This document shows positions 56,055 through 61,493 of a DNA stretch of 64,000 bases, piece after piece. The position numbers were made by a program, and so were the translations under genes. The DNA is from Arenicellales bacterium (lineage in GTDB: Bacteria; Pseudomonadota; Gammaproteobacteria; Arenicellales; JAJDZL01), in NCBI GenBank assembly GCA_965220725.1, contig OZ244840.1, positions 1,869,399 through 1,933,398 on the forward strand. Direction: 5' to 3'. The notes below the pieces were generated by a model. It ran no database searches. It was not told the DNA's origin and saw only the letters and a program-made list of their open reading frames with translations. The stretch's first letter is position 1, and every line of letters begins with the position of its first letter.

Positions 56055-56423
56055 CTAGTATTCCTCGCTTTTAAAAGATTTTATATATTGTAGAATTTCT
56101 GCTTTCGGTAGTTTAATTTCAGCATCTCCAGGTGATTTGAATGCACCAATGAGAATAAAAGCCACAATGATAGTTACTGATACTATTGGTGTAATGCCTA
56201 AGAGGACAACTAGATTTCCAATTTCTTTCAAATCTACCAATAAAGAAAGTATCACTACTTCGAAAATGCCAACTGAAATTATGATTGCAACCGCGACAAT
56301 CAAAACAAACCACCTTACTCTCATATGGTGTCTGTCTAACGGATCCAGTAGTTTGATTCCCTCTCTGTCAAGAAACTCAACATCTGGGTCAGAAATGTCA
56401 GTTTTTGGATTTTGATCGTTCAA
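56055..56423 (-). CDS. 2-TM hypothetical protein, candidate toxin partner of Panacea
   Basis: Two long hydrophobic stretches; overlaps the 3' end of the Panacea gene; AT-rich. Confidence 0.65.
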   Translation of the reverse strand: MNDQNPKTDISDPDVEFLDREGIKLLDPLDRHHMRVRWFVLIVAVAIIISVGIFEVVILSLLVDLKEIGNLVVLLGITPIVSVTIIVAFILIGAFKSPGDAEIKLPKAEILQYIKSFKSEEY

Positions 56424-56883
56424 GTTTACTTTTGAAATGCTCTAAGATCAGTTCATTTGAAATCACTATGCCCAACACGTTAGGTCTATAGACTTGATCC
56501 CATGGTCCGCCAGGAATATGCGTTAGCTGCGTTAGTTGACGGTCGCTCAAATGTTCATACAATTTATATACAGTTTCCATAAACCGGCTAATTTCTTCAT
56601 TTATCAGTTGCTCTTTCAGTATGGGAACTTTCGAAAGGTTATAGACTCCATTAGGTCTGAACGCGTAATAAATAGTTGGAATCACGGGCCCATATTTCCA
56701 TGCTTGGACATAATCATTAACTAATGGCTCATCGAATATTGCCAATGTCCAACCATGCGTCATATAAGTGAGTTTCAACAGACGCATTATTGACATGGAA
56801 TCCCCATGCCGATCTGCGATGTCAATGAGGTGATTAGCGATTTGCCGGCTTTCGTACGGCAGACCTAATTCTTGAGAAGTCAT
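56398..56883 (-). CDS. Panacea (SocA/GepA, DUF4065) domain antitoxin
   Basis: LLKLTYMTHG, AWKYGPV, LTH..GGPW. Confidence 0.9.
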   Translation of the reverse strand: MTSQELGLPYESRQIANHLIDIADRHGDSMSIMRLLKLTYMTHGWTLAIFDEPLVNDYVQAWKYGPVIPTIYYAFRPNGVYNLSKVPILKEQLINEEISRFMETVYKLYEHLSDRQLTQLTHIPGGPWDQVYRPNVLGIVISNELILEHFKSKLERSKSKN

Positions 56884-57054: not shown

Positions 57055-57291
57055 TGGTTGAACTCGTTGCGGCCCACATGAGTTTCGCCAACCTCAAATT
57101 CACCTGTCAGTCTATCACAATCGGCGCCGCAAGCCTCTCGACTACGTTGTAGCATAAACCAAGCACTTTTCTGAATTACATCAGTCTCTTTTGAGAGTTG
57201 CATACTGTTTTATCATTACGGGAAGCCATGAGGGATTAGATTGCGTAAATCCAGTGATTCGAAAGAATTTTAGAACGTTTGAACATCGTGC
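57055..57291 (-). pseudogene. IS1595-family transposase remnant, 3' part
   Basis: TMFKRSKI..HWIYAI* then SMQLSKETDVIQKSAWFMLQRSREAC..LTGEFEVGETHVG; contains a stop, a frameshift and loss of the catalytic Asp. Confidence 0.8.
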
Positions 57292-57310
57292 TGTTGTTTT
57301 TCACTTTAAT
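57292..57310 (+). repeat. terminal inverted repeat TGTTGTTTTTCACTTTAAT
   Basis: Exact reverse complement of 61348-61366. Confidence 0.95.
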
Positions 57311-57418
57311 TCGAACGACTTATCCCGGATTAAATTGTCGCCAAGGGAGCGGTTTGTGTCGGATTGTACCGAAGAGTGTATTCAGCCGGGTCGGGCCAAT
57401 GTGGTATTTGCGGTGTCA

Positions 57419-58336
57419 TCAGCGGAAGATTTCGGGACAGGTTGACGGGTCATGGCCTCGGTCGCGGTGCATGATCGGCTGTCCGCGGCGTTGGATGAGC
57501 ATTTGGTTCCAGGTTTCAGCACTGGGTTTCATGATTCTGGCATTGGGCATGTTGCGCGACAGCCTGGAGCTTCGTGCGCTGGCGTTTCGGGTGTTGGCGA
57601 AGGCGATGACGGTGGGCATTTCCCGCTGTGATTCGAGCCATTCGGGCAGGCTGTGGTGGTGGTTGGTGGCACTGATCAGGACGGATTTGGGGAACGGATG
57701 GTACAGTTGCAGCATTGACAGGGCTTCAATGGCGTTGTCGACCAGGATGGCGGAGACCGGTGGCGGTGCGCCGGTTTGGATCCAGAAGCCACCGGCGTTG
57801 CGTTTGGAGTCTGGCGGTGTCAGTGAATGGAACAGTCGATGCGGTGCGGTGCCGAACAATTCGGCACCGATAGGGTTGCCGTTGAGGTCGGCGCGGACGA
57901 ATACGGCGCTTTGCATGATGCCGGCATAGAGCAGTTTGTGTTGGCGGCACTGGTCGATCAGCCGGCGGTGCAGGGCGCGGCGCCGGCACAGGTGATGTTC
58001 GACTGTGCTCCAGGCTTGGGGCACGGCGCTCGGCAGCACCTGTTGGCGGTATTGCGGGTCGAGATATTCCAGCGCCTCCAGGCAACCGCAGTTGTTGGCA
58101 TGCATGACGAGGGCGAGCTCACCGATGCCGCCGCGGCGCCGTGTGTAGTCGTAGAAGCGATCACCGTTGATGGAGATGACCGACTCGTCTTTTCGCAGCC
58201 GCGTCGGCTCGGCGGGATCGCGACGGTAGCCGAGTCGCCTGGCGAGTTGCCGCAGTGCGGCCGATGCGTCCTGGTGCTGTTTGCCGGTCATGGGACGCAT
58301 CGGTTTGCTGACCGGCTCAGATCTGCAGTTCCTCAT
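57419..58336 (-). CDS. DUF3991/Toprim-like (primase-related) protein, apparently non-catalytic
   Basis: RFYDY..GGIGELALVMH, LCRRRAL, AVF, GAELFGT, GGFW, ILVDNAIEALS, IAFANT, TWNQML. Start uncertain (58336, 58300 or 58291). Confidence 0.7.
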   Translation of the reverse strand: MRNCRSEPVSKPMRPMTGKQHQDASAALRQLARRLGYRRDPAEPTRLRKDESVISINGDRFYDYTRRRGGIGELALVMHANNCGCLEALEYLDPQYRQQVLPSAVPQAWSTVEHHLCRRRALHRRLIDQCRQHKLLYAGIMQSAVFVRADLNGNPIGAELFGTAPHRLFHSLTPPDSKRNAGGFWIQTGAPPPVSAILVDNAIEALSMLQLYHPFPKSVLISATNHHHSLPEWLESQREMPTVIAFANTRNASARSSRLSRNMPNARIMKPSAETWNQMLIQRRGQPIMHRDRGHDPSTCPEIFR

Positions 58337-59120
58337 AGGCCTGTTGCATGTGTCGCAGTTCGACCTGATGCTGGTTGTCCGTCGCGGCGGCGGTGAGGGC
58401 ATGGTGTGCCAGTCGGTTGACCAACCGCGGCATGCCGTTGGCGTGGCGGTGCATCAGTTCGATGGCGTTGTCCCTGAAGTAGGGGATATCGGCACCGCCG
58501 GCGACCTGCATGCGGTGTTGCACATAGGCCGCGGTCTCATTCATGGTCAGTGCGCTGAAGTGATGCTGCACCACCAGGCGCTGGCACAGCGACTCATGGG
58601 CGGCCATGGCGATACGCCGCCGCAACGGTGTCAATCCCACCAGCAACAACCGCAGGTGCTGTGTGGAGTCGAAGTCGAAACTGCTGACCAGGCGAAGTTC
58701 CTCGAGTGCGGCGTTTTGCAGGTGGTGCGCCTCATCGACGACCAGCACCGGGGTCAGTTTCTTCTCGGTCACCATGCGTTCGAGTTCCTGACGGATGATG
58801 CGCCAGACATCCGCTCGGCGGCGCACCGGCGGCAGGCCCAGTTCGGTACCGATCATGTTCAGCGTGTCGAGCACGCTGCCGGTGGTGAGTGACACGTGCA
58901 TCACCCGGTACAGTCCGTCGTGCAGGCTGTGTGCCACCGCCCGGCACACGGTCGACTTGCCGCTGCCGGCCTCACCGGTGATCATACCGATGCCGCCGAC
59001 ATCGACCAGCAGTTTGATGCGCGCCTCGGCCTCGGCCTGGGCGGCGCTTTCGAACAGTTGTGTCACCGGCACTGAGGCCTCGAACGGAAAGCCGGTCAGT
59101 GAGAAGTGTTGCAGATACAT
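58317..59120 (-). CDS. ExeA-family AAA+ ATPase (transposition helper, analogous to MuB/TnsC/IstB)
   Basis: MYLQHFSL..FPF, GEAGSGKS, VVDEAHHL, GMPRLVN; TGATG overlap with the transposase stop. Confidence 0.92.
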   Translation of the reverse strand: MYLQHFSLTGFPFEASVPVTQLFESAAQAEAEARIKLLVDVGGIGMITGEAGSGKSTVCRAVAHSLHDGLYRVMHVSLTTGSVLDTLNMIGTELGLPPVRRRADVWRIIRQELERMVTEKKLTPVLVVDEAHHLQNAALEELRLVSSFDFDSTQHLRLLLVGLTPLRRRIAMAAHESLCQRLVVQHHFSALTMNETAAYVQHRMQVAGGADIPYFRDNAIELMHRHANGMPRLVNRLAHHALTAAATDNQHQVELRHMQQAYEELQI

Positions 59121-60415
59121 CAGCGTTGCTCCCGGCGATTGGCCAGTTTGCGCAGTTCGATCGGCGGTCGCTGGCGGCGCACGCGGGCGTTGGCGTGCAG
59201 GTTCAGCGGTTGCGCCTCACCGGCCGCGGTCTGATCCCGGTAGACCAGCAACGGTGCCTGCGGCTGTGCTGTCGGATCATAGCGCAGCGTCACGCGCTGT
59301 CCGATCAGTTGCGCATCAACCTCGTAAAGATGGTTGTTGAGTTGTACCGTACGGTCGTTGCGCACCCGCCGCATTGCCTCGAACAGAAACATCTGCTCCA
59401 GATCGGTCGCGGCATCGACCAGGCGCACCTTCGAGCCGGCCTGCGCCCACTTGTCCAGCGGCGTCAGACCGTCGAGTCCGCGGTGCGGTGTGCGATGATA
59501 CTCGCCCTCGAGCCAGGCCCTGAAACGGCTGTTGAGTTCCCCGATCGAGGTGCGTGCGGTGTCGGGCAGCTGTTCGAGAAAGCGCATCCGACAGGTTCGG
59601 AAAAACCGCTCGATCTTGCCCTTGCCGGCCGGCGTGTAGGGGCGCGCATGGATCAGCACGATATCCAGCCGTGCGCACACCAGCGCCAACTGCTGTGACC
59701 GGTAGCTGGCGCCGTTGTCGACATACAGCCGGTCCGGCAGGCCGCGGCGCATCAGCGCCTGCTTGAACACCTGCTGGAAGTTCACCAGGTTCTCGGAGAA
59801 CGCAAACGCCGCATAGGGCACCACCCGGGTGGCATCATCGATGAATGCGATCAGATACGTGCGCCGCAGGCGCTGTGAGTCATCCCTGACCGTCGGGCCA
59901 TACATCACATCGCTCATCCACAACTCACCGGCGTGCTCATAGGCGAAACGGCGTCGGTCCTGCGTGACGGTGTTGTCGGCCGGGCGCATCAGTCCCTCGC
60001 GGCTCAGCAACCGATGCACGGTCGAGCGCGGCAGTTCGACCCGGTCGTCGGGTTGCTCCTTGCGCACCCGGGCGATCACATCATCCACGCTGAGGTGCAT
60101 GGCATTGCGCTTGGTCGCCAGCAGGGCCTCGATCATGTTGGTGCTCAGACGCCGCGACCGGCCGCGATCGGCGCGGCGCTTCGGGCACAACGCATCAAAT
60201 CCGCCCTGGCGGTAACTGCGCATCCACTCGCGAAGCGTCGACACCGACACCCGGGTGCGGTGACTGCCCGGTATCTGGTGTTCGCGTTCCGAACACTCGG
60301 TGAGCGCCGCTCTGAGTTGTGGCGAACCCGCCGGCATGCGCAGCAACTCAACGATGACGCCGTAACGAAACAGCGCAATCTGCTTGGCCTGTCGGTCCAA
60401 ATCCTGCTCCGACAT
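59120..60415 (-). CDS. DDE transposase/integrase with Mu-transposase-like C-terminal domain
   Basis: HTH (STLREW), WMSD, FIDDATR, YVDNG, GKIERFF, YHRTPH, VTLRYDP; RBS GGAGG before ATG 60415. Confidence 0.94.
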   Translation of the reverse strand: MSEQDLDRQAKQIALFRYGVIVELLRMPAGSPQLRAALTECSEREHQIPGSHRTRVSVSTLREWMRSYRQGGFDALCPKRRADRGRSRRLSTNMIEALLATKRNAMHLSVDDVIARVRKEQPDDRVELPRSTVHRLLSREGLMRPADNTVTQDRRRFAYEHAGELWMSDVMYGPTVRDDSQRLRRTYLIAFIDDATRVVPYAAFAFSENLVNFQQVFKQALMRRGLPDRLYVDNGASYRSQQLALVCARLDIVLIHARPYTPAGKGKIERFFRTCRMRFLEQLPDTARTSIGELNSRFRAWLEGEYHRTPHRGLDGLTPLDKWAQAGSKVRLVDAATDLEQMFLFEAMRRVRNDRTVQLNNHLYEVDAQLIGQRVTLRYDPTAQPQAPLLVYRDQTAAGEAQPLNLHANARVRRQRPPIELRKLANRREQR

Positions 60416-60442
60416 GTGATTCCTCCTTCCGCAACAACGGAA

Positions 60443-60461
60443 ATTACAGTGAAAAGCCACC
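60443..60461. promoter_or_regulatory. internal TIR-like site upstream of the transposase RBS
   Basis: ATTACAGTGAAAAGCCACC matches TIR ATTAAAGTGAAAAACAACA at 15/19 positions. Confidence 0.55.
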
Positions 60462-60462
60462 A

Positions 60463-61083
60463 TTAGAGCCGCGGCGGCGCCCGGATCGCGCTCACGCACT
60501 GTTGGTGCCCGCTGAGCGGCTGTCGTTGCAGATTGTTTCGAGCGAATCCCAGCGGCCCCGGCAACTGATCCAAGTGCCCGGCACCCAGTCCCCTGAGTGC
60601 CACCAGCAACCGATCCTGCGCCATGCGCTGACGAAACGATGACAGCGTCGGCTCACAGCCGGCCAGCTGTTGCGGATAAAGTCCGATCAACACTGTCAGA
60701 ACTGTCGTCAGACACCGTACCTGACGGCGCAGCCACTGACGCTGTACCGCCACCTCACTGCACCGCGACAGCACCGGTGGCCCTACCGATGGCCGACCCG
60801 CCTCGTAGGCCGTCACCGCCTGTTCGATGTGATCCAGCGTGCCCGGCCGACCGGCCGCAAAACAGTCCGCCAGCAGACTGAAGGTGCACTGCGCCTTGGG
60901 GCAATACCAACGCGGTATCGGTGCCTCAGTCCCCAAATCCGTATATCGTGTGTAAGTGCCGTGCCGGGTCATGCCGCAACCACCCTTCGGATGGACCGGA
61001 CAGCGAGAAAGTGTGATCGAACGCCACGCCTCTGTGTTAACATATTGCTCGGCATCGAGGCCGCACTCGTACCGTATCTGCAT
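60463..61083 (-). CDS. transposon helper protein with Cys/His-rich N-terminus (DUF6431-like)
   Basis: CPVH...C...HGTYTR...RWYCPKAQCTFSLL; first gene of the element. Confidence 0.75.
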   Translation of the reverse strand: MQIRYECGLDAEQYVNTEAWRSITLSRCPVHPKGGCGMTRHGTYTRYTDLGTEAPIPRWYCPKAQCTFSLLADCFAAGRPGTLDHIEQAVTAYEAGRPSVGPPVLSRCSEVAVQRQWLRRQVRCLTTVLTVLIGLYPQQLAGCEPTLSSFRQRMAQDRLLVALRGLGAGHLDQLPGPLGFARNNLQRQPLSGHQQCVSAIRAPPRL

Positions 61084-61347
61084 GAATTGTTGCGTGTTGC
61101 CGCCTCTGTGTCAGCCAACCGGCAGCGCGCTCGGATTCTGACCTTGGTGCAACTGCCGGATGGGTTATCGTTGTGACCCGGTGCCGACTCAATGAGCCGG
61201 CACCGGGTCCTTTCAGTCCCATGTTACCCCGACACCGACATCCGTTTCATGTGATTCTCGCAATACCATAAAAAAAACGGTCTGGTCGCACATTATCCTG
61301 ACCGACCAAACCGTTTATTGTGGGACAAATACAGTGTATTACGTCAT

Positions 61348-61366
61348 ATTAAAGTGAAAAACAACA
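61348..61366 (-). repeat. terminal inverted repeat
   Basis: ATTAAAGTGAAAAACAACA followed by TSD CGTGC. Confidence 0.95.
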
Positions 61367-61493
61367 CGTGCCAGTTCGAACGCAAAAAACCATTCCACCT
61401 TCTTTTTTCTAAGTATTCCTGTGCTGAAATTGCGTTAGGGCATTGTTGCATCAATTGGTATACACTCGTTGCGGAGTTGGTTTGTTTTACCAT
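61367..61493 (-). pseudogene. IS1595-family transposase remnant, 5' part
   Basis: MVKQTNSATSVYQLMQQCPNAISAQEYLEKRRWNG, then a frameshift into FCVRTG; the zinc-ribbon segment is missing. Confidence 0.7.

Follow-up and report, generated by a model that had tools for sequence, protein, structure and literature searches.

An inactivated DnaG-type primase-like gene in the optional fourth slot of a widespread family of small DDE transposons

The 64,000-nucleotide stretch of DNA analysed here (hereafter the window) comes from an Arenicellales bacterium (GenBank assembly GCA_965220725.1, contig OZ244840.1, positions 1,869,399 to 1,933,398 of the forward strand) and contains a 4075-bp transposon at window positions 57292-61366. 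We were interested in the last gene of this transposon, which encodes a primase-like protein of 290 residues (P0001) on the minus strand at 57419..58291, directly after an ATPase gene at 58317-59120. All four genes of the element are on the minus strand, in the order orf206, transposase, ATPase and primase-like gene. The element is rich in GC (about 63%, with about 42-45% on either side), and a perfect 19-bp inverted repeat delimits it. The arm of this terminal repeat next to the primase-like gene, 57292..57310 (TGTTGTTTTTCACTTTAAT, which starts with TGTTG), is 100% complementary to that at the orf206 end, 61348..61366, and the ends of four genomic copies of the element fall exactly at these edges. 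The repeats are flanked by a target-site duplication of CGTGC (left copy 57287..57291, right copy 61367..61371), seen in the flanks of the genomic copies and against an uninterrupted site in a public contig. The frame of the primase-like gene is open from 58402 to 57419, that is 327 codons counting from the first ATG. Besides the start at 58291 there are alternative ATG starts at 58300, 58336 and 58402, and 58291 is favoured by the database gene call and by the point where homology begins. The original prediction, made from the sequence of the window, had described an uninterrupted open reading frame after the ATPase gene which ends about 110 bp inside the terminal repeat; indeed the stop lies 108 bp from the inner edge of the repeat 57292-57310, and the start is more likely at 58291 than at 58336.

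Alignment of the window protein with 24 relatives gave the family consensus motifs GGGGAIDLV, ESAIDALS, GYDADxAGD and DWN, at which the window protein reads GGIGELALV, VDNAIEALS, AFANTRNAS and TWN. The D of GAIDLV is replaced by A, and the acidic E, D, DxD and D of DWN by D, E, A-x-T and T. On the minus strand, codons 185-189 (57725..57739) encode D-N-A-I-E where the family has E-S-A-I-D, aligned to EGYMD of DnaG and EGEID of T7 gp4; codons 232-234 (57590..57598) encode A-N-T where the family has D-x-D, aligned to YDGD of DnaG and FDMD of T7 gp4; and codon 260 (57512..57514) encodes T for the D of DWN in the alignment of relatives. At seven marker sites the window has ADEATST for the family pattern DEDDD[DE]D, being altered at six near-invariant positions. 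Among the 150 best relatives the consensus acid was present at six of the seven marker positions in 106-129 proteins and 100 were complete at all seven sites, while degeneracy at nearly all of them was confined to the window protein and one MobV-relaxase fusion (P0113). Furthermore, 112 full-length copies in the fetched transposon loci were compared at six key sites; 97 were canonical, 14 carried K and DxT, and one, that of the window, was fully degenerate. The motifs quoted in the original prediction (GELALV, VDNAIEALS, AFANT and ETWN) were thus correctly read against the consensus of the relatives, and its observation that frame and scaffold persist although acidic residues have gone is borne out by the alignment, the 150 relatives and the 112 copies. 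To judge from these residues, primase catalysis of the window copy is almost certainly gone.

The Toprim/DUF3991 assignment of the protein was also upheld. The window protein matched DUF3991 in Pfam (E 2.4e-6, 28.3 bits against a cut-off of 24.5) and gave no Pfam match to Toprim, Toprim_2 or Toprim_3 even at E <= 10; sister proteins matched Toprim_2 (4.8e-10 and 1.1e-4). With HMMER, 1.84 billion representatives were scanned in full, and 469 relatives came out at E <= 1e-3, the nearest being 38% identical and nothing in the scan exceeding that identity; a second database entry (P0154) is identical to the window protein. Peptide patterns specific to the window protein detected no close relative among 185,579 species genomes. 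An AlphaFold model of the protein, built on the family alignment, was compared with PDB using Foldseek, and every listed match at E <= 1e-3 was a DnaG-type primase: the Twinkle N-terminal domain, T7 gp4, Aquifex and E. coli DnaG, other bacterial DnaG cores and T4 gp61. The best of them, the primase-like N-terminal domain of human Twinkle (7t8c), had an E of 5.9e-7. The fold match spans nearly the whole 290 residues with a Foldseek probability of 1.0, at 9-13% identity to solved primases. The family profile hit six PDB sequences, all E. coli DnaG or T7 gp4, with weak E values of 0.02-0.09, and in the profile alignment ESAID falls on EGYMD/EGEID and DADxAG on DGDRAG/DMDEAG. The aligned DnaG and T7 gp4 residues are the metal-binding residues of the Toprim fold. 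A search of PDB sequences with the single window protein returned only a chance nudix match (E 0.76).

As modelled, the window protein is a miniature DnaG, with a Cys-less zinc-ribbon-like N-terminus in which the GAIDLV motif lies, a DUF3991 subdomain and a Toprim domain. The fold match suggests that the GGGGAIDLV motif is possibly the DNA-recognition part. The protein resembles DnaG-type primases (the zinc-binding plus RNA-polymerase domains of E. coli and Aquifex DnaG, the primase fragment of T7 gp4, T4 gp61) in its fold and in the aligned Toprim E...D and DxD positions, but it lacks their zinc-binding cysteines and their helicase-binding C-terminal tail, and its metal ligands are lost or swapped. 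In longer relatives the same module is joined to a MobV relaxase or a giant conjugative protein. These DUF3991-Toprim_2 modules have the same Pfam domain pair at 24-33% identity, and the fusion P0113 is similarly degenerate; however, they are fused to relaxases or helicases on plasmids, whereas the window protein is encoded by a separate small gene in a DDE transposon. It could be argued that the protein is still an enzyme, a primase or nuclease with a non-canonical active site, as D185 and E189 replace E and D conservatively, the lost D of DWN has an E before it, and an IS21-like clade likewise tolerates K and DxT. We regard this as very improbable, because the DxD pair and the third acidic position are now A, T and S with no acid nearby, the lost positions align with metal ligands of the Toprim domain which are essential in DnaG and T7 gp4, and conserved polar residues of the DUF3991 subdomain are changed as well (D124G, R126M, N128S, R134A).

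The first gene of the element, orf206 (60463..61083, minus strand), is Cys-rich and conserved in the family, and plasmid relatives in the same position are annotated DUF6431; its product in the window had no Pfam match, and the homologue in locus L093 reaches DUF6431 at E 0.031 only. The second gene (59120..60499, minus strand) encodes a DDE transposase of 459 residues in which Pfam finds HTH_32, rve (4.2e-12) and Mu-transposase C-terminal (5.5e-6) domains, and which scores 208.7 bits against the NCBIfam IS481 model, whose cut-off is 224. Its true start may be downstream, because homology starts near residue 25-40. The third gene (58317..59120, minus strand) encodes an AAA_22 (ExeA/GspA-like) ATPase of 267 residues (AAA_22 2.8e-23; TIGR03015 1.7e-44, below its cut-off). 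In the overlap of orf206 and the transposase gene, window 60442-60460 is 84% complementary to the terminal repeat and may be a candidate internal transposase-binding site, or a chance match. Between the repeat and orf206 lies a 17-bp hairpin (61175..61209, 94% complementary, 1-nt loop), which may block read-through transcription from outside.

The transposon has been active recently. Its four copies in the 2.94-Mb genome are 100% identical over 4075 bp. A 5-bp duplication belongs to each of the four: two are flanked by 5-bp direct repeats, CGTGC (window) and CCATT, and the remaining two have their flanks exchanged between them (GCCCA, TGTGG). These last two copies, at G000:C1:493883-497957 (L003) and 529982-534056 (L002), stand in opposite orientations, and their flanks are swapped because of an inversion by recombination between them, which indicates that the segment of about 36 kb between the two copies was inverted. 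The whole element was found with zero differences in public contigs from runs X1-X3 and, as two identical parts, in run X4; one run holding the element may be the source sample, so runs X1-X4 are not independent. The empty site, with a single CGTGC, occurs in one public contig from a relative about 10% diverged. No RNA data set was listed as containing the element. No evident common sequence was noticed among the four insertion sites (CGTGC, CCATT, GCCCA, TGTGG), which are the only ones known. The window site, the one of the four looked at in this respect, is at the centre of an imperfect inverted repeat (CGTTTGAAC ... GTTCGAACG, window 57262-57291 and 61367-61382), and a SocA/Panacea-domain gene (56398-56883) adjoins it. 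Two other places in the genome look like traces of older insertions: a 241-bp relic at G000:C1:2414436-2414676 (L005), 76% identical to the junction between the ATPase end and the primase start of the element, and an isolated stretch of 31 bp at G000:C1:406091-406121 (L006) that matches (97%) the terminus on the orf206 side.

Loci seeded with the family motifs came from many metagenome-assembled genomes (MAGs) of Acidobacteriota, Alphaproteobacteria, Gammaproteobacteria, Actinomycetota and Chloroflexota, where a genome often had many copies, and in these loci the primase-like gene is always the last gene, in three transposon architectures. Type A, to which the window element belongs, consists of orf206, transposase (48-54% identical), AAA_22 ATPase and primase-like gene in 4.0-4.3 kb; type B has in addition an AAA_25 (RepA/DnaB-like) gene before the primase-like gene (5.2 kb); and type C is IS21-like, with IstA, IstB and the primase-like gene (4.1 kb). 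BLASTP found no significant similarity between orf206 and the first genes of the other two architectures. The complete type A module was found in 16 distinct, multi-copy sister elements, and TGTTG termini with a 5-bp duplication are common to the type A relatives. Copies of an element within one genome are 99.4-100% identical and end about 100-240 bp past the primase-like gene, which places this gene inside the element. At least 20 dereplicated lineages from several phyla carry it as the last gene inside the inverted repeats, with no other cargo.

Since a motif-seeded search is biased to intact motifs, the census was repeated with the transposase as seed. This gave 142 transposase matches, of which 13 without an adjacent ATPase match were excluded, leaving 129 elements. 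The fourth slot holds a primase-like gene in 61 of them, an AAA_25 protein with a winged-helix tail in 18, both in 15 and nothing in 28, and was too short to score in seven; the primase-like gene is therefore absent from 46 of the 122 scorable elements (28 with none, 18 with AAA_25 only). The identity of the AAA_25 protein, which occurs alone or alongside the primase-like gene in related transposons, was confirmed with Pfam at about 1e-37. Such a protein, with a MarR-like winged helix, follows the ATPase at L114:6623-7666, L102:6629-7663, L152:6647-7597, L023:5857-6855 and in L017. Elements without the primase-like gene are 3.5-3.6 kb long, or 4.2-4.6 kb with AAA_25, and are multi-copy as well. 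The three-gene form is also present on plasmids of cultured strains, Cupriavidus necator pBB2 and Geobacillus pGS18, where the trio is annotated DUF6431, IS481-family or DDE transposase, and AAA ATPase. The family core is thus made up of three genes, for a Zn-ribbon protein, an IS481/Mu-like DDE transposase and an ExeA-like AAA+ ATPase, between TGTTG ends with a 5-bp duplication.

A quick maximum-likelihood tree was computed from 56 dereplicated transposases, the type B rows forming its far branch. The window falls in a basal grade whose rows all have the primase-like gene, outside a clade of 98% support to which all primase-less rows belong. Read most simply, the tree and census suggest an ancestral helicase/primase accessory that was lost repeatedly. 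The tails after the ATPase gene of 13 primase-less sisters contained no relic of primase or AAA_25 genes, and therefore dispensable copies seem to be deleted cleanly rather than left as long open frames. The primase-like genes of L065 and L080 are 83% identical and their transposases 61%, which suggests that the accessory module is exchanged between elements.

These observations bear on the role that the original prediction had proposed for the gene, namely that of an exapted target selector, comparable to TnsE or TniQ, which steers the ATPase-transposase to single-stranded, forked or conjugating DNA. In the gene orders tniABQ and tnsABCDE the selector follows the ATPase gene, and the window gene likewise stands directly behind an ATPase gene, has a primase-type DNA-binding fold and has kept its frame though catalysis is dead. 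However, the same slot in the sisters holds an intact primase-like gene, a helicase-like AAA_25 gene, both, or nothing; this points to a replication-type accessory module, and the slot is not a selector slot in this family. The likeness to TniQ/TnsD and TnsE is confined to position, after the AAA+ ATPase gene of a DDE-plus-ATPase transposon. There is no fold relation, and Pfam and NCBIfam scans gave no similarity to TniQ, TnsD or TnsE. Moreover, the N-terminal GGGGAIDLV motif is lost too, and the four insertion sites show no evident common sequence. We therefore consider a selector role improbable; it is conceivable as a sub-case, and nothing in the family context points there.

We estimated the ratio of nonsynonymous to synonymous substitution rates (dN/dS) from 10 pairs of moderately diverged sister elements, and obtained 0.14-0.61 for the primase-like gene, 0.26-0.55 for the transposase and 0.15-0.56 for the ATPase. 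Intact sister primase-like genes are thus under purifying selection, with a dN/dS matching that of the transposase. The original prediction had proposed to check whether transposon-linked homologs consistently lack DxD and yet show a dN/dS below 1; the dN/dS is below 1, but DxD is intact in the sisters. Sisters that lack the gene and sisters with an intact DxD were both seen, but random decay, which had been named together with them as speaking against a selector, was not. The type C gene departs from the canonical form, having K in place of the glutamate and DxT in place of DxD, in 14 near-identical copies from two MAGs. The element concerned (L029:3810-7947 and 13 further copies) carries an ORF of unknown function, IstA, IstB and the primase-like gene as last gene. 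Members of this K/DxT clade are 67-82% identical to each other, with a ratio of nonsynonymous to synonymous polymorphism (pN/pS) of 0.56, so a non-canonical form can persist in proliferating elements.

The second explanation offered at the outset, a decaying passenger from a plasmid mobilisation gene, fares differently in its two parts: the domain family is indeed common to MobV fusions, but the gene is a long-standing transposon gene and no recent passenger. For the family as a whole a decaying passenger was rejected, as the gene is a long-standing, purifyingly selected member of several transposon families. That the window copy was picked up recently from a plasmid, unrelated to transposition, is hardly credible even though MobV relaxases and large conjugative proteins contain this domain pair as a fusion, given that it is the last gene inside the repeats in three architectures and at least 20 dereplicated lineages, without other cargo, and given the purifying selection in sisters.

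The window copy itself has a different history from its sisters. Where transposases are about 51% identical, the primase-like proteins of two sisters are about 54% identical, while that of the window is only about 37% identical to those of the sisters; the corresponding values at the same distance (window against sisters) are 47 and 54 for the ATPase and 34 and 40 for orf206. The primase-like protein of the window has evolved about one third faster than its neighbour genes predict. Among columns conserved in at least 15 of 16 sisters, the window keeps 56 of 89 in the primase-like protein, as compared with 112 of 122 in the transposase, 70 of 87 in the ATPase and 31 of 38 in orf206, and among the positions that it has lost are every primase ligand, the N-terminal motif and several conserved polar residues in the DUF3991 subdomain. 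We compared this pattern with neutral simulations, in which four sister genes served as starts and were run to the window's divergence with substitutions only (300 runs). Hydrophobic character is kept at 40 of the 45 conserved hydrophobic positions, a retention of 0.89 against 0.72-0.83 simulated, which was reached in 0-3.5% of the runs from three starts and in 20% from the fourth; conserved polar residues, on the other hand, were kept less than simulated (0.44 against 0.59-0.67). The G+C content at third codon positions (GC3) is 0.75 in the primase-like gene, 0.78 in the transposase gene and 0.81 in the ATPase gene, with codon periodicity intact, and about 260 codons of homology run without frameshift or stop across a divergence equivalent to about 100-175 neutral substitutions.

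The preserved frame, hydrophobic core and codon periodicity lead us to infer that the window protein is kept as a folded, non-catalytic protein, to which we give about an even chance. Several points weigh against it. The frame stayed open in 12-64 of the 300 simulated runs (4-21%), so that an open frame alone is weak evidence; the retention of conserved columns, 63%, equals the neutral expectation of 59-68%; the mean predicted local distance difference test (pLDDT) value of the AlphaFold model, 87.6, is high but leans on the alignment and is no proof that the window sequence itself folds; within-lineage dN/dS is not available because all copies and public contigs are identical; and the primase-less sisters thrive, which fits a simple loss of function. 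Also, the primase activity of the intact relatives is a putative one, read from fold, residues and gene company. The same evidence feeds the strongest competing account, that the gene is a functionless relic of an accessory primase no longer needed, drifting with its frame open by chance and heading for deletion as in the primase-less clades. Each known functional motif is struck, as a relic would have it, the gene has diverged far beyond its neighbours, and sisters with no primase-like gene or with AAA_25 only are active and multi-copy. Yet the uninterrupted frame would have had to survive all those substitutions, and indels, which were outside the simulation, would lower its chance further; the hydrophobic core is above neutral expectation in three of the four simulation starts; the GC3 periodicity is intact; and the 13 primase-less sisters show clean loss with zero decayed frames. 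Weighing both sides, we hold a relic to be a serious but less probable explanation, and the evidence for preferring a folded, non-catalytic protein is modest.

Thus, combined together, these results establish the window gene as an inactivated copy of an accessory DnaG-type primase, which a widespread family of small transposons carries as an optional fourth gene. The intact protein is probably a primase serving DNA synthesis on the transposition intermediate, because it has a full DnaG-like fold, intact ligands and the company of AAA_25, and its relatives occur in conjugative primase contexts. It would prime synthesis either in a copy-out step or in replication of the strand-transfer intermediate. 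A bioRxiv review lists IS21 among the families presumed to move by copy-out-paste-in, where the circular intermediate arises through replication (bioRxiv 10.1101/2023.06.07.543989), and such a step would be an obvious job for a primase; a Mu-like replicative route is equally possible. The window lineage has lost the ligands together with the conserved N-terminal motif. As the genome has four identical copies of the element and, apart from a 50-residue relic, no other homologue of the primase-like gene, primase catalysis by this gene was dispensable for the recent spread.

What a dead protein may still do is suggested by Twinkle, whose N-terminal domain has the primase fold of DnaG and gp4 and was retained after primase catalysis was lost. 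By analogy, the window protein may attach to single-stranded or forked DNA, or serve as a link to the replication proteins of the host, with the difference that in Twinkle the domain is fused to its helicase whereas the window protein, with a putative retained function, stands alone in a transposon. A more specific version, in which the dead protein is an exapted adaptor that couples the transposase-ATPase complex to host forks or the replisome through single-stranded or forked DNA, seems to us unlikely, though more plausible than a selector. A predicted complex of the ATPase and the primase-like protein (score 0.23, mark 0.32) was informative neither way.

Among described systems, a comparable one is Tn6049 of Cupriavidus metallidurans CH34, which is described as 3.5 kb long and present in 12 copies, with a gspA-like ATPase gene (PMC2864759), and is reported to have 12-bp imperfect repeats and a 4-bp duplication (PMC4739549). 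Tn6049 and the pBB2/pGS18 trios resemble the window element in combining a DDE transposase with a GspA/ExeA-like ATPase at small size, the pBB2 and pGS18 transposases being 41% identical to that of the window; their TG-type inverted repeats and short duplication also compare with the 19-bp TGTTG repeats and 5-bp duplication seen here. All three, however, are 3.5 kb long and without a primase-like gene. The likeness to Tn6049 is one of description, and no C. metallidurans record was among the plasmid matches. According to the bioRxiv review, the PrimPol-helicase IEE is an excision enhancer acting at the copy-out replication of insertion sequences (bioRxiv 10.1101/2023.06.07.543989); it is an archaeo-eukaryotic-type PrimPol encoded outside the insertion sequences, whereas the window protein is DnaG-type and encoded by the element itself. 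Full-text literature searches, outside subscription journals, ISfinder and supplements, brought up nothing on a DnaG-like primase borne by a transposon, on DUF3991 in connection with transposition, or on what DUF6431 does.

The transposon group is little known, and the window gene is a catalytically dead member of its accessory primase family. Its position alone teaches caution, in that a gene placed after the ATPase gene of such transposons is not thereby marked as a target selector. DDE transposons with an AAA+ helper (Mu, Tn7, Tn552, Tn5053, IS21) are thought to depend on host replication proteins; that transposons of three architectures have a DnaG-like primase gene or a RepA/DnaB-like one, or both or neither, points to a possible new accessory function. 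The window copy amounts to a natural knockout, having lost its ligands and yet being present in four identical recent copies, and so would allow a direct test of what the primase-like gene contributes and of whether it does so by catalysis or as a structure. If the adaptor interpretation were true, the element would be a natural intermediate between a transposon with its own primase and one that borrows the primase of its host, within a large undescribed group of DDE transposons that would carry helicase and primase modules for their own replication.

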